Source: a virus
Taxonomy: Duplodnaviria > Caudoviricetes
Length of the DNA: 55,632 bases
Virus record (IMG/VR): IMGVR_UViG_3300045006_000223
Coordinates: 1-55,632 of that record
Direction: 5' to 3' (one strand)
Positions 1 through 15,087 of this stretch are shown piece by piece. Position numbers and translations under genes: made by a program. Below the pieces are notes generated by a model. It searched no databases and was not told where the DNA came from. It saw only the letters and a program-made list of their open reading frames with translations. The first letter of the stretch is position 1. The number at the start of each line of letters is the position of its first letter.

Positions 1-684
1 TGTAGCAGTACGTGCTGCCGCGCCGGCAGGACCCTGCGCTCCGGTATCGCCCTTCAGTCCCTGCGGTCCCTGCGGTCCCTGCGCCCCAACATCGCCCTGC
101 GGTCCCTGCGGTCCCTGCGGTCCCTGCAGTCCAGTGGCTCCGGTATCGCCCTTCGGACCTTGGATTCCTTGCGCCCCAACATCGCCCTGCGGTCCCTGCG
201 GTCCCTGCGGTCCCTGCGGTCCCTGCAGTCCAGTGGCTCCGGTATCGCCCTTCAGTCCCTGCGGTCCCTGCGCCCCAACATCGCCCTGCGGCCCCTGTGG
301 CCCAGTGGCTCCGGTATCGCCCTTCGGACCTTGGATTCCTTGCAGTCCTTGCGGACCTTGGCTTCCCTGCGCCCCGGTGGCTCCGACATCGCCTTGCGGT
401 CCTTGCGCACCGGTATCGCCCTTCGGACCTTGGATGCCTTGCGGGCCCTGTGGTCCGGTGGCTCCGACATCGCCTTGCGGTCCTTGCGCACCGGTGTAAC
501 CAGCAGGGCCCATCCGACCTTCCGGACCTTGTGGCCCCTGTGGTCCAGTGTCGCCCTTCTCGCCCCTGTCTCCGGGTGATCCTTTTTCTGATACTTCGAC
601 GAGCACTTGCTCGATAAGGGTTTGTGCGTTGACGCTCACCTCATCAGGCTTGGATTGCACGACCACGTTGATTATGTCAGACAT
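1..684 (-). CDS. Collagen-like (Gly-X-Y) repeat protein, 3' end truncated by the window
   Basis: Not in the ORF track because it has no stop. My translation from ATG 684: [18 protein letters not shown]...[38 protein letters not shown]...; the start overlaps the end of ORF 677-1021. Confidence 0.92.
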
Positions 685-1021
685 GATCGAACTCCGGTGT
701 TATGGTAGCCGTGCCGTCGATGTAGGTCTTGGACACACCGTTGGCAAAGGTGATCTTGATGGCGTATCCATACACATCCGCCGGCACATCAAACTTTTGC
801 GCGTCTATCCCGATCTGGCCCTTGAGCTGATCGCCAAACGACAGGCCGTGGCCAATGGCTAACGTGGCAACAGGCGGGCAGCCAGGCTTTTTGATCTGCA
901 TGATGGCGGATGCGCCGCGCAAATCGATGTACGCACCGTTCACGGTTATGGTGAACATGGCACCATTGTAGGTGTTGTTCCTTCTGGCAGTGAAGTCGCA
1001 ATGAACGCGTTGGTGGAGCAC
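677..1021 (-). CDS. Hypothetical virion-accessory protein (BppU-N-like beta-sandwich)
   Basis: GTG start with AGGAAGG SD; [12 protein letters not shown]...GQIGI pattern typical of proteins preceding collagen fibres. Confidence 0.6.
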
Positions 1022-1046
1022 GGCTACCTTCCTCTTGCCGGAAACT

Positions 1047-1076
1047 TTATCCGGTTTCTGCGGTTCTGTTGCCTAT
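1047..1076 (+). promoter_or_regulatory. Bipartite motif copy 1 (TTATCCGGTTT-N11-TTGCCTAT)
   Basis: Matches seven other intergenic copies with the same spacing. Confidence 0.75.
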
Positions 1077-1098
1077 TGGACGTGAACACCGCACCTAC

Positions 1099-1127
1099 AT
1101 TATACGGGCAAGCGTGTAAAAGTTCAA
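1099..1127 (-). promoter_or_regulatory. Sigma70-like promoter for the collagen module
   Basis: TTGAAC-17-TATAAT on the - strand. Confidence 0.65.
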
Positions 1128-1172
1128 CATACAAGAACATAGAAAGTTCCTCATGAAAACTGCAAACAGCAG

Positions 1173-1201
1173 TTGCATATTTATAAGTATCGTGTTAAAT
1201 T
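1173..1201 (+). promoter_or_regulatory. Sigma70-like promoter for the early/replication arm
   Basis: TTGCAT-17-TAAATT with extended TGn. Confidence 0.55.
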
Positions 1202-1245
1202 TAACCAACCGCGTAGCGGATGGAAAACAAATCAAGGAGCACATC

Positions 1246-1482
1246 ATGCCCAAGAACAAGATCGAAACCGGAACCGAGGCCGTCTACACCAACCACGGCC
1301 AGACCTTCGCCACCAAGAAGGACGCCGACAACTACGGCGTCATCGTCGCCAAGGTCCAGAGCTTCGCCGATGACAACGACCTCGACGAAGATTTCATCGA
1401 CAGCGCACTGGAAGCCTACCGGGCCGGCGTCTTCGCCCTGCCCAAGGCCACCCGCAAGCCCAAGGGCGACAGCGAGGACTGA
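1246..1482 (+). CDS. Hypothetical early protein (78 aa)
   Basis: AAGGAG SD before ATG 1246; strongly C/G3-biased codons. Confidence 0.85.
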   Translation: MPKNKIETGTEAVYTNHGQTFATKKDADNYGVIVAKVQSFADDNDLDEDFIDSALEAYRAGVFALPKATRKPKGDSED

Positions 1483-1501
1483 GCCGCAACGAACCCGTGA
1501 A

Positions 1502-1530
1502 GCGCCCACCAATACCGGTGGGCGTTTTTA
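1502..1530 (+). terminator. Rho-independent terminator
   Basis: GCGCCCACC/GGTGGGCGT stem followed by a T-run. Confidence 0.7.
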
Positions 1531-1543
1531 TCAGGAGACAAGC

Positions 1544-1945
1544 ATGGATAAACAATACAGGCCGGCACATCGGTTCATCGATCACGAGTACCTGCAAAAG
1601 CGCACAAGCCGAACCGTTCGCGCCGGCTACCAAGTTCCGAAGTGGATTTCTTTCTGCTCATGGGCGTTGTCACACGGTCTGCACGTGTTTATTCACGAAT
1701 CGCGCACGACCGTTTCCAAGTACGTTTATGTTTCCCAAGAACGAAACGGCCCGCAGTTCAAGGTTCGCTTTTCCAACCACAAACCGAGCTTTGCCAAAGA
1801 GTCTGCAGAAGACTGTGATTTTTTCGTCGGTGTGACAAACACCGGCGTGCGCACCACCGAGATGGCTGTCAATGCTGTGCTCGCATGGCTGTTTGCCGGG
1901 TCGACAGAAGAAAACTACACCGACCCGCGCCACGGAGGGCAGTGA
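1544..1945 (+). CDS. Hypothetical phage protein (KVRFSNH motif)
   Basis: AGGAG SD, ATG 1544. Confidence 0.8.
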   Translation: MDKQYRPAHRFIDHEYLQKRTSRTVRAGYQVPKWISFCSWALSHGLHVFIHESRTTVSKYVYVSQERNGPQFKVRFSNHKPSFAKESAEDCDFFVGVTNTGVRTTEMAVNAVLAWLFAGSTEENYTDPRHGGQ

Positions 1946-2193
1946 TGAAAAATCGCAGCTGTGGCAATTGCGCTTACCTGCTCGTGCCCTCAAGCCGTAA
2001 CCCGTGCCAGCTGTGCGACGACGAATCAGAATGGCTCCCTTGCGAACTGGAAAAGCTCAAAGCCCAGTGCGACGAGTTAATTGATGCCCTGGGCGATTGC
2101 GGGCATGGCGCATTGTACAGCGGCAAGCCAATCCACCCAGACTGCAAATCTTGCCAACTCGTCGCCAAAATACGCAATGAAGTTCCCAAGTAG
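1942..2193 (+). CDS. Cys-rich hypothetical protein
   Basis: GTGA overlap with the upstream stop; several CxxC pairs. Confidence 0.75.
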   Translation: MMKNRSCGNCAYLLVPSSRNPCQLCDDESEWLPCELEKLKAQCDELIDALGDCGHGALYSGKPIHPDCKSCQLVAKIRNEVPK

Positions 2194-2296
2194 ATTATGC
2201 GGATCGGGATATTCGATGTTCGGTGGACGCTCTGCGGCGTAACTGCGTTACACCGACAACGCGCCAAGTTTTTGGCACAGATTACAGGAGTAAAAG

Positions 2297-2533
2297 ATGT
2301 GGAACTCAATGCTGAATGAATTGAATGAACTGCACACGAGGCTTGAGCAAAAGCCAGATAGCGAAAAAATGGGCTATGCCTGTTGCCCAGGCGGCATATT
2401 GAATGCTTATCGAGAAGCTGACATTACTTTTGCTCAAGCAGTCAAAGCAATCGAAGATTGGGCATTGTCCCAAGGTGCCAAAAACACCGAACAACAGCTT
2501 CAAGCGGATAGCCCCGTTGGGCCTACCGCTTAA
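2297..2533 (+). CDS. Cassette 1 hypothetical protein
   Basis: AGGAG SD; stop codon lies inside attC1. Confidence 0.8.
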   Translation: MWNSMLNELNELHTRLEQKPDSEKMGYACCPGGILNAYREADITFAQAVKAIEDWALSQGAKNTEQQLQADSPVGPTA

Positions 2534-2546
2534 CCAAATGTTCGGT
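2486..2546 (+). repeat. attC site 1
   Basis: ACCGAAC...TTCAAGCGG-A-TAG...CTACCGCTTAA...GTTCGGT; extra C and extra A in the left arm. Confidence 0.9.
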
Positions 2547-2615
2547 GGACGCCTGCACGGCGTAACCACTTCGTTTATTACGCCGACAGGCGCAGACCTT
2601 CGGCGGGGAGGATTT

Positions 2616-2813
2616 ATGGATGGGACTTGCGAATGGACAGAAGAAAAAGAATGGGGCGAATCCATGGGAACATGGGATACTGAATGTGGCAATGCTTTTA
2701 CCATAATTGACGGGACGCCCCAAGAAAATGGATTTAAGTTCTGTCTATATTGCGGAAAGAGCCTTATCGAATCCGCCGAAGGCACCGAACAAGCTAATCA
2801 ACCTGACTCGTAG
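2616..2813 (+). CDS. Cassette 2 small Zn-ribbon-like protein
   Basis: GGAGG SD, ATG 2616; MDGTCEW...FKFCLYCG. Confidence 0.85.
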   Translation: MDGTCEWTEEKEWGESMGTWDTECGNAFTIIDGTPQENGFKFCLYCGKSLIESAEGTEQANQPDS

Positions 2814-2841
2814 TAACTCGCAGGTTATCAGCACGTTAGAT
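2784..2841 (+). repeat. attC site 2
   Basis: ACCGAAC...ATCAACCTGAC...GCAGGTTAT...GTTAGAT. Confidence 0.88.
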
Positions 2842-2898
2842 GGATTCTTGCCGCATATCGCTACGCTGGATATGCGGACGGCGAACAGGGGGTAGAGT

Positions 2899-3123
2899 AT
2901 GGATGGCATGATAAGAATAGAATCGGGTTATGGTGTTGAATTATATGTCCGCCTTGATCTTGCAAATAAAGTGAAAGCGTGTCCAAGGTGTCTTGGCAAT
3001 GGAAGGTTTTGGCATCAGACATTTTTAACCAATGGTCAGCTATATCCCTACGTGATATGGGGGAGTGTTTGCCCTGAATGTGGTGGTAATGGAATTAAGC
3101 ATCTAACAACTGCTTCAACCTGA
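2899..3123 (+). CDS. Cassette 3 protein with two CxxCxGxG motifs (DnaJ-type zinc finger)
   Basis: CPRCLGNG and CPECGGNG. Confidence 0.8.
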   Translation: MDGMIRIESGYGVELYVRLDLANKVKACPRCLGNGRFWHQTFLTNGQLYPYVIWGSVCPECGGNGIKHLTTAST

Positions 3124-3155
3124 CACCTTCGGTGCAGGTTAAGCAAATGTTCGGC
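3101..3155 (+). repeat. attC site 3
   Basis: ATCTAAC...TTCAACCTGACACC-TTC-GGTGCAGGTTAA...GTTCGGC. Confidence 0.92.
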
Positions 3156-3209
3156 GGACACTCCGCAACGTAACTGCGTCACGTTGACTGCGTGCGAAAG
3201 GAAACAAGA

Positions 3210-3488
3210 ATGATTAACTTTTTAAAAGCAAATCCGTTTGAAGTTGATAGCATGGCCTATAAAATAGACGGATATTTTATACCAAATTACACGGGCAATA
3301 AAACCAAAGAAGAAGAGTTTGAACGCGCAAAAAAGGAGCTATTGGGCCACCTTCGACGGCAATTGGAAATAGCCGAGCAGATGCCGTTTGATATATTTAT
3401 TAAACAAAAATCTGTTTCTTTCTCAACAAAACAATATCGGAATGACGCCGAACAAGGCGTTCAAGTGGACGGCAAAGCCGCCACTTAA
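3210..3488 (+). CDS. Cassette 4 hypothetical protein
   Basis: AAGGA SD before ATG 3210; stop codon inside attC4. Confidence 0.8.
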   Translation: MINFLKANPFEVDSMAYKIDGYFIPNYTGNKTKEEEFERAKKELLGHLRRQLEIAEQMPFDIFIKQKSVSFSTKQYRNDAEQGVQVDGKAAT

Positions 3489-3501
3489 CTTAATGTTAGG
3501 T
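3447..3501 (+). repeat. attC site 4
   Basis: GCCGAAC...TTCAAGTGGACGGC-AAA-GCCGCCACTTAA...GTTAGGT. Confidence 0.92.
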
Positions 3502-3560
3502 TGACAAACAACCAGATAAGCCAAATGCGCTTATCTGGATAATTTGCAAAGGAGGTTTTT

Positions 3561-3794
3561 ATGACAGTAGGTGATTTGATAAATAAACTCTCGGCGTTTG
3601 ATGCCAGAACTGAGATTACTATACTTGACGGGTTTAATGGTGGTGGCATACCACGAACCATAAATTTTGGCCCTATTTTGTTCGATCCTCAAGATAAAGA
3701 GCGTACTTTCAATGGAGATGAAATGCAGGACTACTCAGACTTAGACACTCCAAGTGGTCAAAAAATTATTGTAATGGGTTACGGCTCTTATTAA
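3561..3794 (+). CDS. Cassette 5 hypothetical protein (MTVGDLINKL-type phage protein)
   Basis: AAGGAGG SD. Confidence 0.85.
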   Translation: MTVGDLINKLSAFDARTEITILDGFNGGGIPRTINFGPILFDPQDKERTFNGDEMQDYSDLDTPSGQKIIVMGYGSY

Positions 3795-3798
3795 GGAA

Positions 3799-3862
3799 GC
3801 CTAACAACTGCTTCAACCTGACTCAACGCAGTAGCGTTTCGCAGGTTAAGCAAATGTTAGCC
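3799..3862 (+). repeat. attC site 5
   Basis: GCCTAAC...TTCAACCTGAC...GCAGGTTAA...GTTAGCC. Confidence 0.92.
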
Positions 3863-3926
3863 AGATCGGCGCGCCGCATAACTGCGTCATGCGGACGGTC
3901 AACTAAACCGCCCGAAAGGAAGTTTT

Positions 3927-4133
3927 ATGGACGGAAAATGCGAATGGTTGCGCCAGTTTGACGGCCATTTTGCCATTGGTTGCGTTGGCGAAACTGGTGA
4001 ACGGGCAAATGGTAATTTCAAACGTACAAACGACGGTTTGGACGCAAAATGGGATTTTAAGTTTTGCCCCTACTGCGGTCGGGAAATAAAAGTCGTTTCA
4101 ACCGGGCGGCGTCGAACAAAGGTTTCAACCTGA
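3927..4133 (+). CDS. Cassette 6 small Zn-ribbon-like protein (homolog of cassette 2)
   Basis: MDGKCEW...FKFCPYCG. Confidence 0.85.
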   Translation: MDGKCEWLRQFDGHFAIGCVGETGERANGNFKRTNDGLDAKWDFKFCPYCGREIKVVSTGRRRTKVST

Positions 4134-4167
4134 TTCGCTACGCCCACAGGTTAAACCAATGTTCTAC
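4111..4167 (+). repeat. attC site 6
   Basis: GTCGAAC...TTCAACCTGA...CAGGTTAA...GTTCTAC. Confidence 0.85.
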
Positions 4168-4192
4168 AAGGATAAAATAAGAAGGAGGTAAT

Positions 4193-4819
4193 ATGGACCG
4201 CAAAACATGGACGTACCGGCCTGGTGTGTTCACAAGTAAGGACAAGACCGCTATTCGGGGCTTGGCCACCGTAGCGCCGAACGCTGCGCAGATATTCCTG
4301 ACCGGGGAAATAGCCACGGCAAGGCTGTCCGAAGATGACCGGTGGTCGTTGCTTTACGCGAACAACACCGTCGAGCACCCGCTGTTCGAGGAAACCGGGC
4401 AGGCGACGATCCGCATGATGCGCTTCGACGCTCGGCAGGTTTGGCCGGTGCTGTTGCAGGGCCAGCTCGTCAAGATGATGGTCCTGGAAGCCCGGCGGTT
4501 TGGTATCACCGACATGGCACTCACCAAGTTCTGCTTCTACGAAAGCCTGATCGACGTGGCCGGCCTGACGGACACATACGTCACCTATGACAGCCCGACC
4601 CCATCCACGGTCAAGGTGTACTTCAACGCCCTCACCATGTTCGGCAAGCCCATGCTGTGCGGCATCCCTGTATCATGCTTTTTTTCTGCCGACTTCGATC
4701 TGAAGGCTGACCGAGTGGCTGCCAGTCGTGATACACTGAAGGCGCGGGACATGGCCAGGGATAGTAGCCACTTTGCGCCGACCAGCTCCGAGGTGAATTT
4801 TCTGCTCCGGCTGAGTTAA
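4193..4819 (+). CDS. Hypothetical protein (208 aa)
   Basis: AAGGAGG SD, phage-like codon usage; no tyrosine-recombinase RHRY signature seen. Confidence 0.85.
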   Translation: MDRKTWTYRPGVFTSKDKTAIRGLATVAPNAAQIFLTGEIATARLSEDDRWSLLYANNTVEHPLFEETGQATIRMMRFDARQVWPVLLQGQLVKMMVLEARRFGITDMALTKFCFYESLIDVAGLTDTYVTYDSPTPSTVKVYFNALTMFGKPMLCGIPVSCFFSADFDLKADRVAASRDTLKARDMARDSSHFAPTSSEVNFLLRLS

Positions 4820-4827
4820 ATCACCAC

Positions 4828-4856
4828 TTGACATTTATCATCCTTCATGCGAGGAT
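4828..4856 (+). promoter_or_regulatory. Sigma70-like promoter, possibly leaderless
   Basis: TTGACA-17-GAGGAT with TGn, 6 nt before ATG 4863. Confidence 0.5.
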
Positions 4857-4862
4857 ACTGGA

Positions 4863-5441
4863 ATGGCAGAAAAAAGACTCGTCGGCAAGATCGACCTCGC
4901 CCCCGGTGTTGTTTTCAACGAAGCGCGGCACGAGTACCACCTGAAAGGTCGGCAGCTTTCTGGCGTGACCGGCGTGATCGGCAAGCGGCTTGGGACCAAG
5001 ATGCCTGAACAGTTCGTCGGCGAAGTGCGGAACGAGGGTCTGCATGTCCACCATGCAATCGAAGACTGGATCGGGTCCGGGCTTACTAAGTGCAATTCCA
5101 TCCATCCAGGCGTTATGTGGATGACTCAGACCCTGCTTGACCACTGTGTCGGCCCGAAACAGCTATTCGCAGAAGTGCTGGTCAGTGATCTGCAACAGTA
5201 CGCTTCGGCCGTCGACATCGTAGTACTTACCACCTATGGTAAGCTCGACTTGTTCGACATGAAGCGCAGCTTCAAGCGCACGTCGGTGACGTGGCAGCTG
5301 TCGATCTATAAGTATTTCATCGAGAAGTTTACTGACTACGAGGTCGGTAAGCTCTGGTGCGCTGCGTTCCGTGATAAAGAGTACTACCCGGTGTTCGCAA
5401 AGAGCGCTGAAGAGGTCGAAGGGCTTCTTTACGGAAAATAA
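4863..5441 (+). CDS. PD-(D/E)XK exonuclease (RecB/Cas4-like phage nuclease)
   Basis: SGVTGVIG, GxxVHxxIE, E..VD..DMK, WQLSIY motifs. Confidence 0.85.
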   Translation: MAEKRLVGKIDLAPGVVFNEARHEYHLKGRQLSGVTGVIGKRLGTKMPEQFVGEVRNEGLHVHHAIEDWIGSGLTKCNSIHPGVMWMTQTLLDHCVGPKQLFAEVLVSDLQQYASAVDIVVLTTYGKLDLFDMKRSFKRTSVTWQLSIYKYFIEKFTDYEVGKLWCAAFRDKEYYPVFAKSAEEVEGLLYGK

Positions 5442-5471
5442 TTATCCGGTTTTCGCAGTTTCATTGCCTAT
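5442..5471 (+). promoter_or_regulatory. Bipartite motif copy 2
   Basis: TTATCCGGTTT-N11-TTGCCTAT just upstream of the SD of ORF 5489. Confidence 0.8.
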
Positions 5472-5488
5472 AAGGCGAGGAGGTTAGT

Positions 5489-5680
5489 ATGCCCGAACCC
5501 AAAATCAAAGAGGTGCATTTCGAGCGCGTGTTCAATCTGGGAAACTACGAGAGCTTCCGCATCGGCTTTACTGCCACGGTAGGCCCGACGGACAACCTGG
5601 AAAACGTGCTGACTGCCCTGGATGAGCGCACCGTGCAGGCCCGTAACGAGTTCCTGCGCCCTGTGAAGGCTGGCAAGTGA
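5489..5680 (+). CDS. Hypothetical phage protein (NLGNYES motif)
   Basis: GAGGAGG SD; common small phage family motif. Confidence 0.85.
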   Translation: MPEPKIKEVHFERVFNLGNYESFRIGFTATVGPTDNLENVLTALDERTVQARNEFLRPVKAGK

Positions 5681-5901
5681 TGAAACTTGAGCAGCAGCCG
5701 GCAACGATAGACGGTGTGCGCAGCATCGCGCAGATGTTGGCACGTATCGAGCGTGCCAACAGCGAGAACGTCACCTACGTTCGCAGTGTGCCGAAGGTGC
5801 ACATGAGCAAGAAGGCTCGCCGGAAGCTCCGCGAGCAGCAGAAGCAAGACACAGCTGCCTGGATCGGCAGCAAGCAAGGAGAGGCCAATGAAAGCCGCTG
5901 A
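5677..5901 (+). CDS. Hypothetical protein
   Basis: GTGA coupling to the upstream gene. Confidence 0.7.
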   Translation: MMKLEQQPATIDGVRSIAQMLARIERANSENVTYVRSVPKVHMSKKARRKLREQQKQDTAAWIGSKQGEANESR

Positions 5902-6832
5902 TGCTACCATGCCGGAACTGGCGATTGTTCCGGTCAAGAACTACGAAGTCGAGGGCAACTTCGATGATGTCAAGAAGTTCCTCGAAGGTGTCCGTGCCAA
6001 GTACCGTGATCTGGTCTTCACCGAGGACAACATCGAAACCGCCAAGATCATCAAGGCTGAGCTGGTTTCGCTGCGTACCTCACTGACCAAGATTCAGACC
6101 GATGTGAAGAAGCAGCGCTTCAACGACCCGAAGAAAATCTTCGATGCCAAGATGGACGCACTGCTCGCCATCACCGGTGAGGTCGAGGCCGAGATTGACG
6201 CAGCACTGTCCCGCGAAGACCAGAAGCGCATCGACGAAATCAACGAGGCGCTGGAAGCCTACAAGGACCATTTCGTCACGGTGTATAGCCTGGAACCGCA
6301 GTACGCTGAGCGCGTCGAGTTCAAGAAGTCCTTCTACAATAAGACCGCCATCGAGAAGGAGTCCAAGGCCGACATCGAATCCCAGTGCAAGTCACTGGCC
6401 GCCGAGCAGAAGGCCCGCAACGGCTCTATCAAGCTCATCAAGAAGGCACTGGCTGGAACCCCGGAAATCAATGTTGACGAACAAATCAGGAAGCTCGACA
6501 ACGGCCACGACGTGGCTTCGATCCTCGAATGGATCGAGGGTGAGCAGGAGCGTCTGGCCAGTCTGGCCATGCCGAAGTCTGTGGGTGTTGCTGGTGTGCC
6601 GGCGGACAGCCGCGACTACGCCAACGATGGCGAGGAGCAGGAAGAAGACGTGCCCACGCTCACCGGCAAGGTGGTCGACGCGGCCAAGAAGATCGACTTC
6701 AGCACCGACTTTCCCGGCAAGACCAAGAGCCTGTCCGTCACCATCACATATCCGGTTGATGCTGGCGATGCGCTCACCGAACTGTTCAAGACGCTCCGTG
6801 AGTACGGCATTACCACGAAGGTCAACAAGTAG
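5888..6832 (+). CDS. DUF1351-family coiled-coil protein
   Basis: NFDDVK..KYRDLVFTEDNIETAK..AEL pattern; located in the recombination module. Confidence 0.75.
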   Translation: MKAADATMPELAIVPVKNYEVEGNFDDVKKFLEGVRAKYRDLVFTEDNIETAKIIKAELVSLRTSLTKIQTDVKKQRFNDPKKIFDAKMDALLAITGEVEAEIDAALSREDQKRIDEINEALEAYKDHFVTVYSLEPQYAERVEFKKSFYNKTAIEKESKADIESQCKSLAAEQKARNGSIKLIKKALAGTPEINVDEQIRKLDNGHDVASILEWIEGEQERLASLAMPKSVGVAGVPADSRDYANDGEEQEEDVPTLTGKVVDAAKKIDFSTDFPGKTKSLSVTITYPVDAGDALTELFKTLREYGITTKVNK

Positions 6833-6842
6833 GAGGCTGAGC

Positions 6843-7178
6843 ATGGCAACACTTGGTTCGCTAATCGGTGCCGTAGTAGTATCGCTTATCTTGGCGTACC
6901 CGGTGCTGCATTTCCCGCCTTTGTTCTGGGTCTTTTTTCTGGTCGGCGGGATACCGAGCATGATCATCGGGATGTGCCAAGACGCAAAGCACAGTGCTGC
7001 TGTGTACCATGAGGATCGCGCTGACCGCAGGCAGCGTAGTGCCAACGCCGCAACAATGGCCGCAGCGCTGGCCGCTTCGACGATTCAGGAGCACAATGAC
7101 AACCGCGTCGTCAATATCGATGCGCGTCAAGTGCATTACCACCAAGAAAATAAAGCACGAAACGGCTTTATTGAATAG
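6843..7178 (+). CDS. Membrane protein (2 TM)
   Basis: AGGAGG SD, ATG 6843, hydrophobic N-terminal half. Confidence 0.75.
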   Translation: MATLGSLIGAVVVSLILAYPVLHFPPLFWVFFLVGGIPSMIIGMCQDAKHSAAVYHEDRADRRQRSANAATMAAALAASTIQEHNDNRVVNIDARQVHYHQENKARNGFIE

Positions 7179-7195
7179 CCATCAGGAGGAAAACC

Positions 7196-8122
7196 ATGGC
7201 AAAAACTGTCAATGCGGGAGTACCCGCCAAGAAGTCCGAGGCTCTGGACGAGCTGAACCAGCTGGCGCTCGCTGGCAAGGCACACGAAGATGTCATCCGC
7301 GACCAGACCGGCGGCCAGAACAGCTTCATCAAGCTGATCGGCGATCCCCAGGCCAAGGAGCTGATCGAAGGCAAGCCCGAGTTCATCAAGGGTGCCAAGT
7401 ACGCCAGCTTCATCATCGGCAACAAGAAGCTGCACCTCGGGCAGAAGTTCGAGGCCACCGTCGTCGGCATGTTCAAGCTGTACGAGGAGTCCGAGGTCAA
7501 GAAGGAAGGCTCCAAAGAACTGCCGAAAATCTTCGGCTACTGGATGCCTGAGGACGCCGAGAACATCCCCGTCGAAGGTATCTTTGACCGCCCCTTCAAG
7601 GCCAAGGACGGCACCGACCACGTGCTGAAGCCTGTCCACTGGGTCGCCCTGTACATCCACAAGTTCCCGGACTTGGAAGACGCTGTGCTGTCGTTCCGCT
7701 CGGTCGGCAACGGTATCTACAACCAGCTGGCCAAGACCATCAAGAACCAGAGCGCCATGGCTCCGCAGCTGCGCTTCATGGTCAAGAGCCAGGCCATCGA
7801 AAATAAGAACTGGGAGAAGACCAACCTCTACCCGGCCTTCGAGGTCATCGGCAAAAACTTCGACTTCGCCGACGAGAAGATCAAGCTCATCGACGAGGAC
7901 GACGGTGGCATGAACGTGGACACCCTCAAGGAAGTTCTCGGTCGGTACGCCCGCCTCAACGACGAGTACGCTGCCAACAAGCTGGTCGCCAAGAAGGCCA
8001 ACATTTCGGCGCTGGTGGCGGGTACACAGGCCCCGGCCGGGGCGCTCACGGCGAATGCCGGGAAGGGCAAAGCCGGATACCGCGCTGCCGACGATGACGA
8101 CGAGGCACCGACCAAGTTCTGA
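7196..8122 (+). CDS. Putative single-stranded DNA-binding protein
   Basis: Highly biased codons, acidic C-tail ending in Phe (DDDDEAPTKF), upstream of primase/polymerase. Confidence 0.65.
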   Translation: MAKTVNAGVPAKKSEALDELNQLALAGKAHEDVIRDQTGGQNSFIKLIGDPQAKELIEGKPEFIKGAKYASFIIGNKKLHLGQKFEATVVGMFKLYEESEVKKEGSKELPKIFGYWMPEDAENIPVEGIFDRPFKAKDGTDHVLKPVHWVALYIHKFPDLEDAVLSFRSVGNGIYNQLAKTIKNQSAMAPQLRFMVKSQAIENKNWEKTNLYPAFEVIGKNFDFADEKIKLIDEDDGGMNVDTLKEVLGRYARLNDEYAANKLVAKKANISALVAGTQAPAGALTANAGKGKAGYRAADDDDEAPTKF

Positions 8123-8130
8123 TCGCTGTG

Positions 8131-8169
8131 CGGCACCGGGTCTTCAAGGCTCGGTGCCGACTACATTTT
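8131..8169 (+). terminator. Terminator-like hairpin
   Basis: CGGCACCGGGTC/GGCTCGGTGCCG stem; weak T-tail. Confidence 0.55.
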
Positions 8170-8185
8170 ACCGGAGGAGTCAAAC

Positions 8186-8662
8186 ATGGCGTACTACAAG
8201 GTGATTGTGGACGGAAAAGAATACGTGAGCCAGCACCTGTGCCGTGCGGCCAATCGCCTCGGCGACGCCGGCATCATCAGGGCTGTTGCCGAGAATGAGC
8301 TGTCGCAGCTGAAGCTGTTCGACAATGTGCTGTTCTCGGTCGAGGATCGGCATCGCAGGCACTACGACAACCTGGCACCGCAGACCGAACTGCAGCAGGT
8401 CGACGCTGACATCAAGATGTTGCAGAAGATCGACAAGCCGGTGCCGGAGAAGTCAGTTATAGCCGTCCAGAAGGAATCCGTTGTCGCGCTCTACGAGCGG
8501 AGTGGGTTCAGGTTTGTTCGGCTCAGCGACATTACCGATGTGCGCAAGTACCGACTGCAGGTCCGCATGGCCTGCCTGCAGATTTGTGGTAGTATCTACG
8601 TGGCACTTGACGCCGTTACCAAAGGAATCGTTGATCCGATAGTTGTCACAATCAAAGAATAA
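8186..8662 (+). CDS. Hypothetical protein
   Basis: GGAGGAG SD, 158 aa ORF. Confidence 0.8.
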   Translation: MAYYKVIVDGKEYVSQHLCRAANRLGDAGIIRAVAENELSQLKLFDNVLFSVEDRHRRHYDNLAPQTELQQVDADIKMLQKIDKPVPEKSVIAVQKESVVALYERSGFRFVRLSDITDVRKYRLQVRMACLQICGSIYVALDAVTKGIVDPIVVTIKE

Positions 8663-8676
8663 GGCCGGTAAACACC

Positions 8677-10428
8677 ATGAGTGGACCAACAATTGTAGAT
8701 AAGTTTCGGTCCTTGTTTACCGGCCACACTGAGAGCTTCGTCAAACACACTCCACCTTTTGCCACTGACGACGAAGGCAAAACAAAGGCGAGTTTTGTGG
8801 GGCTGGCCCAGTACAAGCTGAACAGCAAGTACCACCCGAAACCACCAAGCGGGTATTCCGAGGACGACTATGTTCCGCTGACGGTCGAGCAGTACCGCGA
8901 ACACCTGAACGGCGGCAACGGTCTTGCAGTGTCGCCGCTCACTGACGCACCAGACAAGCGAGACGTGTGCTTTTTTTCTGTCATCGACATTGACGTGTAC
9001 GACGTTAATTTTACTGCGCTGGTGCAGCGCCTATACAAGTATGGGTACAAGTTTGCCGCGTTCATATCAAAGTCTGGCGGGATTCATCTGTACTTCTTCT
9101 ACCTGAAGCCGGAGGAAGCAGGAAAAGTACGCCACGAGATGGACCGCATAATCGAGCGGTTTGGTTTGAACAAGATATACCAGAAGGGTGGGAAGTCACG
9201 TGTCGAAGTTTTTCCGATGCACAGCGCCAGGACGCCGGGGCAGCACGACAAGTGCATTTTCCTGCCGTTCTACAACTCGGCAAATCAGGATGGTGGGTCA
9301 AGTCAGAAGATGCTTGGTGCGGATGGTGCCCTCCACTCGATAAGCAAGGCGATACCGATCATTGAAACGATGTTCACATCGGTCGCAGATGTCGCCCGGA
9401 CCACTGATGCGCTGCCGTACAGCGACGCACCGTTCTGCATTCAGATGTTGATCCTGTCGGGCAGTATGGACGCCAACTCAGGGCGCAACGAGTTCTTGTT
9501 CACTGCGGCGACTTACCTGAAGACGAAGTACGGTGACGCGCTGACGATAGAACACATCGAGGAGGTAAACGCGGAGTTTCCTGACCCGCTGGAAGCCAAG
9601 GAAACGAATAGTGTGTTCAACTCCATCAAGGTGAAGGACTGGCAGACTGCGGGTCGCTGCAAGAAGGAGCCGGTGGCATCATTCTGCGACAAACAGCTGT
9701 GCCGCGACAGGAAGTACGGCGTTGGTCGACAGAAAGGCAACACGGTTTCCAACGTCGAGTTCGGCAAGATTTACAGGATGCTGGCGGAAACGCCATACTA
9801 CCTGTGGGAAGCCAGGCTTGCAGGTACTGACGAGTACAAGAAGCTTCGCATAGATGGCGCAGAAAATCTGTTGAACCAGAAGACGATCCAGAAGGCGTGC
9901 ATCGACACACTCGGCCAGCTGTCACTTACCGTCACACAGCCCACCTGGGAGAAGACAGTCAACGACTGCCTTGCCACGTTAGAAGAGCTTGAAGTGCCGA
10001 AGGCCACCGACACCACGGAAATGTCGGCGTTGCGCGAACTGTTCCTACGCTACCTCACCCACCGGCAAGCACAGAACAAGCAACCGTACACCGTGAATGT
10101 CAAACAGGTCTACAAGAACTGCAGCGCCTACTACTTCAAAACTGACGGCTTCGTCGACTACCTGCGCACCATGAAATTTGTGCTCGGCAGGACAAACCTG
10201 CGCGAGCAGCTTCTGTCCTACGGATGTGAGGAAGGTGAGCTTGAGTACACCACGGGGGCAGGGCAGAAGAAAAGCATCAAGTGCTGGAAGAAGCCAGATG
10301 ATGACGATCTGCGGGCGCTGGACACATTCTACGACGACATCATGGACGCCGATGCGGAAGTGCTGGCGCAGAATAAGCTCAACAAACAAGATCGCGGCAG
10401 CCCGGATGCCGATGACACGAGGTTCTAA
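8677..10428 (+). CDS. AEP-superfamily primase with PriCT-like domain
   Basis: IDID, SKSGGIHLY, GRNEFLF motifs; Cys cluster; no Walker A. Confidence 0.88.
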   Translation: MSGPTIVDKFRSLFTGHTESFVKHTPPFATDDEGKTKASFVGLAQYKLNSKYHPKPPSGYSEDDYVPLTVEQYREHLNGGNGLAVSPLTDAPDKRDVCFFSVIDIDVYDVNFTALVQRLYKYGYKFAAFISKSGGIHLYFFYLKPEEAGKVRHEMDRIIERFGLNKIYQKGGKSRVEVFPMHSARTPGQHDKCIFLPFYNSANQDGGSSQKMLGADGALHSISKAIPIIETMFTSVADVARTTDALPYSDAPFCIQMLILSGSMDANSGRNEFLFTAATYLKTKYGDALTIEHIEEVNAEFPDPLEAKETNSVFNSIKVKDWQTAGRCKKEPVASFCDKQLCRDRKYGVGRQKGNTVSNVEFGKIYRMLAETPYYLWEARLAGTDEYKKLRIDGAENLLNQKTIQKACIDTLGQLSLTVTQPTWEKTVNDCLATLEELEVPKATDTTEMSALRELFLRYLTHRQAQNKQPYTVNVKQVYKNCSAYYFKTDGFVDYLRTMKFVLGRTNLREQLLSYGCEEGELEYTTGAGQKKSIKCWKKPDDDDLRALDTFYDDIMDADAEVLAQNKLNKQDRGSPDADDTRF

Positions 10429-10629
10429 ATGTTGATTGAAGATTTCGGCACTATCACGTGCCCCGTCCACGGCACGAGGATGGAGATTAGCTATGTGAAT
10501 CCGTCGCGCAAGGTTGCGGGCTACGGCATCAAACAGCTCGGTGTGTACACCGGATCGTGTGGATGCGTTCTGCAGTTTGGCACTGATCCGCAGCTTCTGC
10601 GGAGGGGGTGCGACAATGGAAGTTCTTGA
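10429..10629 (+). CDS. Small Cys-containing hypothetical protein
   Basis: Abuts the primase stop; CPVH...CGC. Confidence 0.6.
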   Translation: MLIEDFGTITCPVHGTRMEISYVNPSRKVAGYGIKQLGVYTGSCGCVLQFGTDPQLLRRGCDNGSS

Positions 10630-11029
10630 CTACATCGACATCGCCACTACCGACCCTGATCATGTCGCGCAGGCGGTAGTGAGGTACATCCAAGAGCATG
10701 GCGACATGATCAATTCCCTGGATGTGAAGGTGCGCGTGTCGATATGCAGGTCGCCCCAGACGATACGGGCGAGCAAGTCTGACAGGCAAAGCACACTGCA
10801 GCAGCTTATTTCTGCTTCCGGCATTTCCGTGTGGCACGCCGGCTTGTATAGGTTCGACTTCACCAAGGGTCAGTACCTTGCTGGCAGTCAGGAGCTGTAT
10901 GTGACAGCCGGCGAGGCTGTGGCAATGTATCAGAAGCTGGTGCGCAAGCAGCACAGTATCACCTGGGCTGCGTTCTTCTCAAACCTGAAACGTAAACACG
11001 GGAACGATTTTCTGAAGGATTTCGTGTAA
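10616..11029 (+). CDS. Hypothetical protein
   Basis: GGAGGGGG SD before ATG 10616. Confidence 0.75.
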   Translation: MEVLDYIDIATTDPDHVAQAVVRYIQEHGDMINSLDVKVRVSICRSPQTIRASKSDRQSTLQQLISASGISVWHAGLYRFDFTKGQYLAGSQELYVTAGEAVAMYQKLVRKQHSITWAAFFSNLKRKHGNDFLKDFV

Positions 11030-11038
11030 GGAAACAAA

Positions 11039-12541
11039 ATGAAAGCCTACGACGTAGAGTTTGCCACGGACGACGTGCTGGTACATCTGGCAGCTGCCGG
11101 GGCAGGAAAAACACACGCCATGATGGAGGAGGTGGTCGAGCTTCTGAAGGTTTACCGGCCGGACGAGATTGCCTTCGTTACCTTCACCCGAAAAGGCGTC
11201 ATGAACGGCATCGACCGCGCCATCAAGGCAAACCCGCAGCTGTCACCCGACGACCTGCCGTACTTCCAGACATTGCACCGCCTGGCATTCCACGAATCCG
11301 GACTGAAGCACAAGAACATCATCGAGCGCTCGGACATCGCCCGTTTCAACAAGATGCTCGGATTTCATCTGAACCTGGCGTCCACCTTCGACAATCAGAC
11401 CGACGACGACAAGATGTTGCAGCGGTACGACGCGATCCGCTCTGGCGGTGACAAGGGTGTGTTCGTACACAGCATGTACGACGAGGAGCACTATGATCGG
11501 CTCATCTCGGCCTACGAGAACTTCAAGAAGCAGAATGACCTTGTGGACTTCTATGACTGCCTGCTCAGATTCAAGGAGCGCGGCAAGCCAATAGGCGTGA
11601 AGGTGTTCATGATCGATGAAGCGCAGGACTTGACACACACCCACTGGGAAGTTGTCGAGATTGCGTCACGCAACGCCGAGAAGGTTCGCATAGCTGGCGA
11701 TGATTTCCAGAGTCTTTTCTCGTACTCGGGTGCATCACCGGAGACACTGATCCACCTTGCGGAAAAATACCCGACAGTCAAACATGAGAAGTCGCACCGT
11801 CTTCCGATGGCAGTATACAAGTTTGCCCGTGGTGTGACGAAGCTCATCCAGCACAAGGTCGACAAAGACTACGCGCCGATCAAGGATGTGGAAGGCTTTG
11901 TGAAAACAATTTCCGACCGCAACATCCTCGCCCGCATAGTGCGCAAGGACTTTGAGGACAATGGTTACGCGCCGAGCCGGTGGTACTTCCTGTTCCGTGC
12001 CAACCACTTCATCGCCGATATGGCCACGACGCTTGAATCGTTCAGTGTTCCGTACCACACATCAAAAGGCTTCGTGATACCGGAACGCGACATTGCCAAG
12101 ATCAAGCGATTCTATATGTACCGCAAGGCAGGCTACGGCACACGTGACGCACGCGAGCACTTCATGAAGGAATACAATATCAAGAGCTTTGATGAAGATT
12201 TCGTCGAAAGCGACTTGATCCCATCGACCGCCAGATACGTGTACTTCGACTACGTGAATAAGTACGGTATCGAGGAAATCGAGCGCATGTCGAAGGCAGA
12301 ACCGTTTGTGCTGCTGGCGACAACATACAAAGTCAAGGGTGGTGAGTGTGACTACTGCGCAGTGTTCATGGACTCGACGAAGCTCGTCAGCGAGAATACC
12401 ATGCTCGACCTGGACAGCGAGCTGCGTGTTTTGTACGTCGCCTGTACCCGCCCAAAGATCGGGCTGTATCTGATACCAAGCGAGAGCCGCTACGGCATGG
12501 ACAATGTGGTAGAACTCGTGCGCGACATGATGGAGGAGTAG
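11039..12541 (+). CDS. UvrD/Rep-like SF1 DNA helicase
   Basis: AAAGAGKT, FVTFT, DEAQD, GDDFQS, SHRLP, LYVACTR motifs. Confidence 0.93.
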   Translation: MKAYDVEFATDDVLVHLAAAGAGKTHAMMEEVVELLKVYRPDEIAFVTFTRKGVMNGIDRAIKANPQLSPDDLPYFQTLHRLAFHESGLKHKNIIERSDIARFNKMLGFHLNLASTFDNQTDDDKMLQRYDAIRSGGDKGVFVHSMYDEEHYDRLISAYENFKKQNDLVDFYDCLLRFKERGKPIGVKVFMIDEAQDLTHTHWEVVEIASRNAEKVRIAGDDFQSLFSYSGASPETLIHLAEKYPTVKHEKSHRLPMAVYKFARGVTKLIQHKVDKDYAPIKDVEGFVKTISDRNILARIVRKDFEDNGYAPSRWYFLFRANHFIADMATTLESFSVPYHTSKGFVIPERDIAKIKRFYMYRKAGYGTRDAREHFMKEYNIKSFDEDFVESDLIPSTARYVYFDYVNKYGIEEIERMSKAEPFVLLATTYKVKGGECDYCAVFMDSTKLVSENTMLDLDSELRVLYVACTRPKIGLYLIPSESRYGMDNVVELVRDMMEE

Positions 12542-12865
12542 ATGAGCATATTGCAGGTGATAAGGCTACGTGCCAGGGCGGCCAAGCTACGGGCCGATGC
12601 TGACATGCTTGCCGAGAAGGCAGCCGACATCGAGTTCAACGACACACTTCGAGCGCTCGGCTGGAAAATCGGTGATGACCTGGAACGTGACAGTCCGATG
12701 TGGGTGTTCGGGAAGTTCAAGCCCGTGCACGAGCGCGTCCGGCTCGAAGGGCGTAAGGGCCACACCGGCAGCTTTCTTGCAAGACCATACAATTGCGACG
12801 GTAAGCTGGTGGCAACGGTAATACGGATATGGCCGAGCGACGGCTGGAAGAAGGTGAAGAAATGA
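12542..12865 (+). CDS. Hypothetical protein
   Basis: Coupled between helicase and polymerase. Confidence 0.7.
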   Translation: MSILQVIRLRARAAKLRADADMLAEKAADIEFNDTLRALGWKIGDDLERDSPMWVFGKFKPVHERVRLEGRKGHTGSFLARPYNCDGKLVATVIRIWPSDGWKKVKK

Positions 12866-15087
12866 AGTACTTCGGCCTCGACTGTGAAACCGACGACCCG
12901 CTCCTGACTGACCAAGGCCCGTCCTGGGTGTTCAAGCAGGGCGAAGTACTCGTCACCGGCCTGTACGACGCGCAGAAACAGAAGAAAAAAGCTGTAGACG
13001 GGGCGGGCGCCCACCGCATTCGAGATATGTTTTTTTCTGCCAACACGACGCTCATCGGCGCGAACATCGGCTACGATGCCGGTTGGTTGTGTCACGCCCA
13101 CGGCATTAAGGCGCGGGAAATCAGGTGTGGGCTGATTGACGTGACCATCGCCGAAAGCCTGATCGACGAGTACCAGCCGTTCAGCCTGGACGCGCTGGCC
13201 CAGAAGTACCTGCGCGAGCGCAAGGGGCACGAGAAGCTTGCTGACATCGCGGCCGCCTACGGCTGGAAAGGCGATTTCCGCCAGCACTTGAAGAAGCTGT
13301 GGTACGGTGAAACGCCGACCGGACTCTCGTACCGTGCCGAGATACGTGAGTACGTCATTTCGGACGCGGACCAACCTGTCCGCATCTGGGAGAAGCAGAA
13401 GCTGATCCTTGAGGAGCAAGGCTTGATGCCGGCCTTCGAGATGAACATGAAGATGGTGCGTATCACCCTCGGCATGAAGCAACACGGCGTCCGCATCGAC
13501 TATGAGAAGTGGCTTGAAAACTGCGCCATCGCAAACAAAGCGTACACCAAGCTGCACGACGAGTTTGTGGCCAAGTACGGCGAGTGCAACATCAACTCAC
13601 CGAAGCAGGTGGCAGCACTGTTTGACACGCACGGCGTACCGTACAAGTGCAAGATCGTGTTCAAGGGTTGGGCACCGAACGGCCGCAAGTTCACCAAGGC
13701 AGACTGGTTCGTTGGCGACGATGTGTGGGACCAGCGCAAGCGCCTGAAGGAGAGCTTCCCCAATGTCCGTGTGGCCAAGGGAAAGATCGTGCTCATGGTT
13801 CCGAAGCAGTACGCCGAGCGAACAGCCGTGCAGGCCGCCAGCATGGGCTACCAGATCACATGCAACCCCTCCGTCGGCAAGTTCTGTTTTGCCGCTACCA
13901 AGGCGACCCATCAGGTTGTGGCAGACATCGTGGAATACAAACAGGTGCTGAACATCATCACCAAGTTCCTCGGGCCGAACCTGGAACGCTTCATGGCTAT
14001 CGATAAGAACGGCGACCGTAGAATACACGGCAACTTCGACCCTGTGGGTGCTCGCCAGACATCACGCCTCAGCGCGTCAAAACCGAACCTGCAGAACATA
14101 CCGTCGAAGACCGTGCTGTTCGCCGGAACGGATCACGCCATGGACCTTGCGCACATGTGCCGTGAAGTGTTCCTGCCGGATCGCGGTCAGATGTTTGTGA
14201 AGCTCGACTTCTCCGGCCAAGAGAACGTCCTGCAGGCGCATTTTGCCGTGGGCAAGGCTGGCGAGCGCATCCGCCAGATGTACCGCGACAACCCGCGCCT
14301 GGACGAGCACCAGTTCGTTGCTGACGCCTCTGGCCTGCAGGAGCAGCACGGCAAGAAGGTCGGCCGCAAGTACGCCAAGAACGTCCGCTTCGGTCTTTCC
14401 TATGGTATGCAGATCGTGACGATGTGTGAGCAGTTCGGATGGGATACCGAGTTCGCCGAGGCGCTGATCATTGCGGTCAAGGACGCTGCCCCGTGGGTGC
14501 CGGAAACCATGGAGGCGATCCAGGACATGCTACTCGGCAAGGGGAGGTTCCAAGGCAGGGCCAGGCGGTACATTAAAACCATTGCCGGCAGGCGCATCCA
14601 TTTGCGCGACGGCATGGACCGTGACGCCTACAAGTTCTACAACTACCTGATTCAAGGCTCGGCTGCTGACATGATGAAGCACGCCTTGATAAAATTCGAC
14701 GAGTCCCCGGCGGCCGAGGTCATTACCCTGTTGCTGACCGTGCATGACGAAGGCGGTTTCAGCGTCCCGATCACCCCTGAAGGCATCGCGCTCGTCTTGG
14801 CGCTGCAGTCTTTCTTCTGCTCTGCGGTCAAGCTTGACATCCCAATCAATGCCGACCCGGAGGCCGGCCCGAACTGGGCAGACGCCGACGGCCAGACCAA
14901 GGACACGGAAACAGGGCTGTTCAACGAAACTGTCGAGGCCATGCTTGAACGGATCAGCCAGAAACTTTTGTCGGGCAAGGTGGAAATAGTTGACAAGACC
15001 GATGTTCCATGCGAAGATGCTGAAGACGATGACATCGACTTCGACGCCTTGGGTGAAGAAGACGAGGAAGAATTGGAGGAAGAATGA
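12862..15087 (+). CDS. polA: Family A DNA polymerase with 3'-5' exonuclease
   Basis: Exo DCET/NIGYD/YxxxD; RLSASKPNLQNIP; motif A DFSGQE; motif B RKYAKNVRFGLSYG (Phe at the 762-equivalent position); motif C VHDE; ATGA overlap start. Confidence 0.96.
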   Translation: MKYFGLDCETDDPLLTDQGPSWVFKQGEVLVTGLYDAQKQKKKAVDGAGAHRIRDMFFSANTTLIGANIGYDAGWLCHAHGIKAREIRCGLIDVTIAESLIDEYQPFSLDALAQKYLRERKGHEKLADIAAAYGWKGDFRQHLKKLWYGETPTGLSYRAEIREYVISDADQPVRIWEKQKLILEEQGLMPAFEMNMKMVRITLGMKQHGVRIDYEKWLENCAIANKAYTKLHDEFVAKYGECNINSPKQVAALFDTHGVPYKCKIVFKGWAPNGRKFTKADWFVGDDVWDQRKRLKESFPNVRVAKGKIVLMVPKQYAERTAVQAASMGYQITCNPSVGKFCFAATKATHQVVADIVEYKQVLNIITKFLGPNLERFMAIDKNGDRRIHGNFDPVGARQTSRLSASKPNLQNIPSKTVLFAGTDHAMDLAHMCREVFLPDRGQMFVKLDFSGQENVLQAHFAVGKAGERIRQMYRDNPRLDEHQFVADASGLQEQHGKKVGRKYAKNVRFGLSYGMQIVTMCEQFGWDTEFAEALIIAVKDAAPWVPETMEAIQDMLLGKGRFQGRARRYIKTIAGRRIHLRDGMDRDAYKFYNYLIQGSAADMMKHALIKFDESPAAEVITLLLTVHDEGGFSVPITPEGIALVLALQSFFCSAVKLDIPINADPEAGPNWADADGQTKDTETGLFNETVEAMLERISQKLLSGKVEIVDKTDVPCEDAEDDDIDFDALGEEDEEELEEE

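Follow-up and report, generated by a model that had tools for sequence, protein, structure and literature searches.

Structure and content of the cassette array

The window analysed here is the whole of IMG/VR record IMGVR_UViG_3300045006_000223, a stretch of 55,632 bases from a virus of the class Caudoviricetes with a completeness of 95% estimated by CheckV. Positions 2218–4167 hold an array of six small co-oriented open reading frames (ORFs) on the + strand (65–92 aa), with an integron attC-type site of 55–64 bp behind each. Seven cores GTTnnnn (2218, 2540, 2835, 3149, 3495, 3856, and 4161) and six inverse cores nnnnAAC (2486, 2784, 3101, 3447, 3799, and 4111) were located. The preliminary description of this DNA had recognised five cassettes ending at 3862; these five are real, but a sixth (3857–4161) was missed, and the array ends at 4167. 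The features of the array are listed below, with the cut between G and TT of a core written as G^TT.

2218–2224, + strand: first core GTTCGGT, the probable insertion point in phage DNA (G^TT), with the left junction ...TTCGATG^TT
2219–2540, + strand: cassette 1 (c1), with leader hairpin at ~2225–2265, ORF 2297–2533 (78 aa), and attC1 2486–2546
2541–2835, + strand: cassette 2 (c2), with leader hairpin at ~2547–2593, ORF 2616–2813 (65 aa, zinc-ribbon-like), and attC2 2784–2841
2836–3149, + strand: cassette 3 (c3), with leader hairpin at ~2842–2886, ORF 2899–3123 (74 aa), and attC3 3101–3155
3150–3495, + strand: cassette 4 (c4), with leader hairpin at ~3156–3195, ORF 3210–3488 (92 aa), and attC4 3447–3501
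3496–3856, + strand: cassette 5 (c5), with leader hairpin at ~3502–3548, ORF 3561–3794 (77 aa), and attC5 3799–3862
3857–4161, + strand: cassette 6 (c6), with leader hairpin at ~3863–3903, ORF 3927–4133 (68 aa), and attC6 4111–4167
4161–4167, + strand: last core GTTCTAC, the right junction of the array with the backbone

Several of the cassette stop codons fall within attC. The composition of the array is foreign, with a GC content of 0.455 against 0.548 in the rest of the genome. Upstream of 2218, a covariance model of attC found no attC-like site, and no attI was recognisable, attI having no general model.

The proteins of cassettes 2 and 6 are paralogous (32% identity) and gave weak zinc-ribbon echoes in Pfam (E ~0.01); only that of cassette 2 matches phrog_10312. 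The cassette 3 protein carries a zinc-finger-like CXXCXGXG motif of the DnaJ type, and the comparison of 11 local proteins with NCBIfam yielded only a weak DnaJ zinc-finger echo. No family matches were obtained for the proteins of cassettes 1, 4, and 5, and a search of a large protein collection with the cassette 4 protein retrieved only itself.

Anatomy of the attC sites

The outer repeats follow the RYYYAAC/GTTRRRY frame, with AAC and GTT present in all six sites. The purine/pyrimidine pattern is relaxed: position 4 is C in four of the seven cores (GTTCGGT, which occurs twice, GTTCGGC, and GTTCTAC). When the bottom strands are folded as single-stranded DNA (ssDNA), the R box is paired, the spacer between it and the L box is short and unpaired, the L box (part of the inner imperfect inverted repeat) carries a bulged G, and the terminal hairpin varies. 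The bulged G, an extrahelical base of the kind that marks the recombinogenic strand, follows CTT or GTT in five of the six genomic minimum-energy folds; in attC4 it appears only once the cassette is circularised, and the R box of this site closes only with the start of its own cassette. The z-scores of the folds range from −3.4 to −6.8 for five sites.

The covariance model was built from an alignment of 75 sites in which AAC, GTT, and the TTCAA/TTAA centres are invariant, the loops and cores are free to vary, and the outer L-box pairs covary (GCTT/AAGC, GATT/AATC, and AGTT/AACT). In the 55.6-kb genome the model, whose training set includes the six array sites, found only these six, with scores of 53–76.5 bits. 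The attC family is defined by the conserved L-box and spacer sequence and not by the core, which varies from cassette to cassette. The GTTCGGY cores had been proposed as a possible mark of the donor integron lineage; C occupies core position 4 in 21 of 126 cassette starts from unrelated contigs, and that proposal is not supported.

Among nine terminator-like hits in 900–5000 none is an attC site, and the attC sites have no T run; two of the terminator-like hits lie within leader hairpins (2244–2263 on the + strand and 3538–3512 on the − strand). A scan of 1000–5000 against Rfam gave no relevant family, and the promoter scan found no recurrent promoter consensus in the leaders or modules. As its six sites lie within 1.7 kb and the record has no integrase at all, the locus is classed as an attC-site cluster that lacks an integron integrase (CALIN); a complete integron would have intI beside the array.

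Complementarity of inverse cores to the cassette starts

In bacterial integron cassettes it is a textbook property that the inverse core is complementary to the first bases of its own cassette, and this is the classical argument for insertion of circles at G^TT. The core and inverse-core pairs given for c1–c5 in the preliminary description were found exactly as quoted. For each site, the four variable positions of the inverse core were compared with the own cassette start and with the adjacent core, which gave matches (own/adjacent) of 4/4 for c1, 4/2 for c2, 4/1 for c3, 4/2 for c4, 3/3 for c5, and 2/3 for c6. The earlier statement that the inverse core fits the own start better in c2–c5 thus holds for c2, c3, and c4 and fails for c5, in which the pair reported as G-T is a C·A mismatch on the recombinogenic bottom strand.

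Over the six array sites, 21 of 24 positions match the own start and 15 of 24 the adjacent core. It had been suggested that the circle argument would fall if a permutation test showed self-complementarity no better than with neighbouring cores. The own start did better than the neighbouring cores: when the seven cores were permuted exactly over the six sites, 12 of 5040 arrangements scored at least as high as the own-start arrangement (0.0024), and the value for c1–c5 alone was 0.0056. Other registers (offsets −3 to +3, with 0 excluded) produced only 55–63% matches.

The rule was also examined in 70 non-identical outside cassettes, each with a site at either end; viral contigs supplied 54 of them, bacterial genomes 14, and Tetrasphaera phage TJE1 the other 2. 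The inverse core agreed with the own start at 258 of 280 positions, perfectly so in 59 cassettes, and with the adjacent core at 141 of 280. Own-start matches exceeded adjacent ones in 57 cassettes, fell below them in five (L067 twice, L006, L062, and L092), and equalled them in eight; the observed own-start score was reached by none of 10,000 shuffles. Since the rule holds in these cassettes, own-start complementarity is a general property of the attC family.

Circularisation in silico followed by folding of the bottom strand, which the preliminary description had proposed as a check, stabilised c2, c3, and c4, where a 9-bp R box was restored and the energies changed from −7.0 to −14.7, from −13.2 to −18.3, and from −13.1 to −20.0 kcal/mol, respectively. 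The check is uninformative for c1 because its own and adjacent cores are identical; c5 did not change, and c6 became less stable.

The leader of c5 is near-identical in loci L035, L006, and L071, whose core GTTAGGC is the perfect partner of the c5 inverse core. The leader of c6 follows GTTCGAC elsewhere (L043/L055), the perfect partner of the c6 inverse core GTCGAAC, and the first ~13 nt of c6 (3856–3870) match the start of another cassette type (L020 and L032). The 5′ end of c6 looks chimeric, with its first ~13 nt swapped, and a crossover at G^TT would not explain it. Insertion of c1–c6 as one circle in a single step was considered as well and is unsupported, attC6 matching the c1 start at only two of four positions.

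The leader hairpin

After the core, most cassettes carry a G/C/T-GA-C/T motif, then an imperfect hairpin, and then a ribosome-binding site. In this hairpin an internal loop separates the lower stem from an upper one of 7–10 bp, which ends in a free loop. Of 72 sequence clusters, 36 had a bottom-strand hairpin at or below −8 kcal/mol, against 7 of 72 inner 55-nt windows and 4 of 72 shuffles. Of the 37 cluster representatives with a hairpin, 30 folded more stably on the bottom strand and 1 on the top strand. G·T pairs in these 37 numbered 33 in the bottom folds and 5 in the top folds, with 196 and 131 in shuffled sequences, so that base composition explains the strand bias only in part. The alignment of 35 bottom strands, which had been selected for folding, yielded 11 consensus pairs, 9 of them with compensatory changes. 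In this alignment 91% of the cells are paired, compared with 69% when shuffled and 31–43% when slid; the covariation score is 0.63 against 0.20 (reached by 0 of 500 shuffles), and a G·T pair occupies one position in 32 of the 35 sequences.

To judge from these patterns, the leader hairpin seems to act as ssDNA on the same strand as attC, and not as an mRNA leader. A structure of the mRNA 5′ untranslated region was dropped as an explanation, the wobble pairs being on the other strand, as was a sigma-70 promoter spanning the hairpin, the promoter scan having shown no recurrent promoter. In a circular cassette the leader hairpin would adjoin the R box, where it might conceivably assist or control the folding of attC or the binding of protein.

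Among 31 cassette pairs with leaders at least 85% identical, the coding regions were at background similarity in 25 and clearly related in 2. This pattern makes it seem that a non-coding frame is reused with unrelated ORFs. In the array itself, leader stretches 2218–2296, 2540–2615, 3495–3560, and 3856–3926 match those of L062, L115, L035/L006/L071, and L043/L055, respectively, where the ORFs are unrelated.

What is new here is that most cassettes begin with a second conserved hairpin, which covaries, favours the bottom strand, and recurs before unrelated ORFs. Outside this array, the hairpin occurs in TJE1 and in many viral contigs. It is not mentioned in the available portions of Qi et al. 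(2023), and no description of it was found in the literature on integrons that was consulted.

Reality and origin of the array

The public runs containing the stretch are labelled as lake-water metagenomes from 2018 and 2025. Both junctions of the array with the backbone are bridged by contigs of other runs (X4 pieces 1500–2826 and 3395–4476, and X10 piece 3842–4328), as are most internal junctions, with 0–5 differences. The order c1–c6 is identical in the 2018 run and the 2025 runs. Runs X7 and X9 contain a c2-like cassette with 11 differences over 255 nt (2538–2792); from 2792 on, both its attC body and the DNA downstream are different. This variant is not explained by site-specific recombination alone.

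The nearest relatives found are viral contigs L143 and L144, with 66–67% identity in the DUF1351 protein and synteny that extends over eight genes or more. In their 28.3 kb, the covariance model (filters off, E ≤ 1) detected no attC-like site. Homologues of both array-flanking genes adjoin each other in L143. In L144 the homologue of the downstream flank directly follows homologues of the tail genes, and no homologue of the genes flanking the array upstream was found. The array being missing from both contigs, it is taken as an addition in this phage lineage. The array ends rebuild a plain target ...TTCGATG^TTCTAC..., which fits the GWT consensus; L143 and L144 are too diverged in that interval for the empty insertion site to be recovered from them.

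Scans of 58 ORFs against PHROGs and of 69 against Pfam turned up no integrase, and a six-frame search of the genome with PF00589, positive in 14 of 14 control genomes, gave nothing at E ≤ 1. On the result of these scans, the record looks like that of a virulent-type tailed phage.

Distribution of the attC family

A 17-base L-box pattern occurs at no fewer than 121 viral-contig loci, and the whole nnnnAAC...GTTnnnn frame surrounds it in 71 of the 134 matches listed. By the covariance model, 44 of the first 80 viral loci carry 101 sites in all (28 loci with at least two and 16 with at least three), and 18 of 41 viral loci with short flanks also contain sites. The attC family is thus common in unrelated viral contigs, which is new here; the titles and abstract openings searched included no survey of attC sites in uncultivated viral contigs.

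A strict 26-base attC pattern was present at a minimum of 43 viral loci and at 21 loci in 32.2 million bacterial and archaeal contigs. The 21 bacterial loci belong to 19 genomes of many phyla, and all 20 distinct loci gave model hits. An integron integrase scoring above the TIGR02249 cut-off is encoded in 4 of the 19 genomes; in a Desulfosarcina genome it lies ~10 kb from the attC site, in the orientation expected for an array. One 23,964-bp contig (L076/L123) is filed both as viral and within a Spirochaetales genome bin, in which another contig carries an integron integrase. L130 and L136, from one Treponemataceae chromosome, and L147 are arrays of five to six sites, mostly of ~120 nt, mixed with a short site of the phage type; an integron integrase above the curated cut-off lies on the same chromosome, 52–180 kb away.

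Eight near-complete attC-bearing phage genomes were compared all against all, and no protein family was common to all of them; a dedicated phage-encoded recombinase is therefore unlikely. The widest family was an N6/N4 DNA methylase, present in five of the eight, with several copies in or beside cassettes. A search with the terminase of the present phage in 40 attC-bearing viral records gave no matches, a result that lacks a positive control and says nothing by itself. The orphan N6/N4 DNA methylase genes are the following:

L152, 2999–3640 and 12231–13022
L156, 10575–11291 and 12135–12902
L158, 1779–2591

The L156 gene at 12135–12902 (− strand) ends within an attC site.

Mechanism of acquisition and alternative explanations

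Positions 2218–4167 very likely represent six integron-type gene cassettes inserted as circles at G^TT, presumably by a host integrase acting in trans. The preliminary description had also taken the units to be inserted circles and not terminators. This is borne out by the attC anatomy, by the own-start rule in the array and in the 70 outside cassettes, and by the absence of any terminator-consensus hit among the sites; the accessible parts of Qi et al. (2023) add the IntI1 recombination of the homologous TJE1 sites at G^TT. Pairing of an inverse core with its own start, and not with its neighbour, would follow from the insertion of circles at that point.

Each cassette is a promoterless unit made up of TTnnnn, the leader hairpin, a ribosome-binding site, a small ORF, attC, and G. 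Its circle would be inserted by an integron-integrase-type tyrosine recombinase that cleaves between the G and the TT. Because the phage has no such enzyme, we infer that the integrase is supplied by the host cell; it would act first at a simple G^TT in phage DNA and then at resident attC sites. Host integrases in trans appear to be the best-supported engine, because the same attC type occurs in bacterial genomes, 4 of 19 with an integron integrase.

Several observations weigh against this interpretation. Site attC2 folds weakly (z-score −0.97), c5 is neutral (3 vs. 3 matches, and folding unchanged on circularising), and c6 breaks the own-start rule, its energy worsening on circularising from −11.5 to −8.8 kcal/mol. 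The unchanged order of c1–c6 gives no sign of current activity, and no circle or excision joint was seen in contigs of four runs over 1500–5000, where the missing joints are no evidence against excision because contigs cannot show rare forms. No tyrosine recombinase was detected here or in another 40 viral records with this attC family, six of which are at least 90% complete. To our knowledge, actinobacteria are reported to lack integrons, and the host of TJE1 is an actinobacterium, which is awkward for a route through host integrases. Homologous exchange between conserved non-coding modules also shapes the arrays, since unrelated ORFs are found with the same leaders and attC bodies, and c6 appears to have a chimeric 5′ end.

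Some of these points would suit an alternative in which the cassettes are moved mainly by a mechanism of the phage world without an integron integrase, either homologous or annealing exchange among conserved non-coding modules, of the kind suggested for the promoter-stem-loop modules of T4-type phages, or an unrecognised enzyme acting on the adjacent bottom-strand hairpins. Besides the missing tyrosine recombinases, it is favoured by the strict pattern being found at 43 or more viral loci and only 21 among the 32.2 million bacterial and archaeal contigs, and by the 25 of 31 leader-matched pairs with coding regions at background similarity. The block formed by attC5, the core, and 13 nt, common to L020 across a cassette boundary, points the same way together with the chimeric c6, as does the divergence of the c2 variant of X7 and X9 inside attC at 2792 and not at G^TT. 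However, homologous exchange does not predict an inverse core that pairs with its own start. The eight near-complete genomes have no family in common that could be such an enzyme, the widest being the methylase in five; the same site type stands within bona fide bacterial integrons, and the homologous TJE1 sites are good IntI1 substrates according to what is available of Qi et al. (2023). This alternative is considered unlikely.

The repeats might instead be nothing more than regulatory hairpins between early genes, acting as terminators or in RNA processing or stabilisation, and site-specific recombination would then have played no part in their past. Their intergenic position, regular spacing, and strong folding speak for this, and attC sites are described as weak terminators in the consulted passages of Qi et al. 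(2023, PMC9892861). Yet no attC has the T run of the terminator consensus or belongs to an Rfam family, regulatory hairpins would pair with the adjacent core and not with a core 300 nt upstream, and the leader hairpin is selected on the non-transcript strand. The own-start rule refutes this explanation as a full account, which leaves it very improbable, and a regulatory side role is something that the sites may have. That a piece of a bacterial integron was joined to the phage contig in assembly can scarcely be credited: the array is lower in GC and assemblies of other runs break at several attC sites, but both junctions are bridged by contigs of other samples and years with 0–5 differences, cultured phage TJE1 has the same arrangement, and the array fits in frame into the early region's gene order.

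A wider picture is put forward only tentatively, and we hold it to be rather doubtful. Unrelated virulent phages would share an integron-type cassette pool of their own, with a site composed of two neighbouring bottom-strand hairpins (attC and the leader hairpin), a frame reused for different ORFs, and a content forming a store of exchangeable functions for host takeover or counter-defence, orphan methylases for example; movement of the cassettes would fall to host integrases acting in trans or to a not-yet-recognised enzyme. The cargo of the present array could be imagined to have such a role in host takeover or counter-defence because of its position at the start of the early region and the orphan DNA methylases of sister arrays. 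If the shared pool is real, reuse of the frame would make the genesis of cassettes traceable.

The attC family recurs in dozens of viral contigs that lack an integrase and have unrelated backbones, often beside orphan DNA methylases, which suggests that such arrays are not rare accidents. If phages routinely swap small early genes via host integrases, integrons would be a two-way channel of gene flow between phages and bacteria. The strand-specific second hairpin and the reuse of the frame bear on the control of attC folding and on the birth of cassettes. The case also shows that core and inverse-core sequences read without tools can correctly identify integron cassettes.

Phage backbone and flanking genes

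Genes named by PHROGs and Pfam include those for a collagen-like tail fibre, a primase of the archaeo-eukaryotic type, UvrD-like and SF2 helicases, a family A DNA polymerase, ThyX, the large terminase, the portal, and a head protease. Megablast of window positions 1–12000 against cultured phages gave zero matches. The backbone genes near the array are as follows:

1–684, − strand: collagen-like tail-fibre gene (G-X-Y repeat), truncated by the contig end, with a homologue in L144
1945–2193, + strand: last backbone ORF before the array, 82 aa, Cys-rich, with GC at the backbone level
4193–4819, + strand: first backbone gene after the array, 208 aa

The product of 1945–2193 had no match in Pfam, PHROGs, or NCBIfam, and the protein of 4193–4819 as a query retrieved no relatives from viral contigs or metagenome contigs. 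Just 3′ of the first early ORF (1246–1482), positions 1497–1527 form a GC-rich stem followed by a T run, which is terminator-like by eye and absent from the list of the consensus terminator scan. Gene 15995–18058 encodes a 687-aa product whose outer stretches both match one PHROG family and whose central region (residues ~122–494) is of the LAGLIDADG and Hint/intein-splicing type; this product probably carries an intein.

Comparison with known systems

Qi et al. (2023, Front Microbiol, PMC9892861, as far as this source was available) reported 17 CALINs among 10,705 phage genomes, including virulent phages such as Tetrasphaera phage TJE1. Five of the six phage attC sites tested there, both TJE1 sites among them, recombined with attI1 under the action of IntI1, and the junctions lay at G^TT.

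TJE1 (NC_019930) is the nearest cultured relative of the present phage and carries the closest known locus. Both are virulent-type tailed phages without an integrase, and in both the small cassettes, all in one orientation, lie at an end of the early region. One TJE1 attC matches attC5 by blastn, and its three sites score 53–66 bits with the covariance model; the leader hairpin follows the core, the own-start rule is obeyed, and the GC content of the array (0.466) lies below that of the genome (0.577). The TJE1 terminase is the best cultured match of that encoded here (36% identity, against ~26% for the next hits), and six further head, neck, and tail genes are collinear (23–31% identity). TJE1 differs in having three attC sites and a methylase cassette, whereas the present phage has six sites and small proteins only. 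Only 7 of 75 ORFs are common (23–36% identity), and the replication modules differ. The TJE1 sites have been recombined experimentally, while the six described here are known from their sequence. In TJE1 (L171, 49197–49217 and 1–12), an imperfect palindrome of core-like and inverse-core-like halves, annotated as a terminator, precedes the array, and an additional inverse-core/core pair only 3 nt apart stands at the start of the first cassette.

The array resembles those of bacterial integrons, sedentary chromosomal as well as mobile, in its attC anatomy, the G^TT boundary, and promoterless cassettes with a single ORF. In contrast to them, it lacks intI, a recognisable attI, and a known cassette promoter, its carrier is a phage of the lytic type, and most of its cassettes bear the extra conserved bottom-strand hairpin beside the core.

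T4-type phages have promoter-stem-loop modules, which carry a promoter and shuffle by homologous recombination. These too are conserved non-coding modules between small variable early ORFs, and a module recurs with unrelated ORFs; unlike them, the leaders described here have no promoter consensus, and the logic of the boundaries is that of site-specific recombination.

Integrases also insert cassettes at non-att GWT sites of bacterial chromosomes (Loot et al., preprint 10.1101/2022.09.11.507474, in the part available). As in those attG insertions, which give single attC sites lacking an integron integrase (SALINs) or CALINs, the present array has neither integrase nor attI, and its junctions rebuild a ...G^TT... 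target. Unlike the attG cases covered there, which concern bacterial chromosomes, the target here is phage DNA and six cassettes have accumulated. The locus is thus a new and larger member of a published kind, the phage CALIN, and with it a six-cassette array of a virulent-type phage from lake water joins the few phage CALINs on record.

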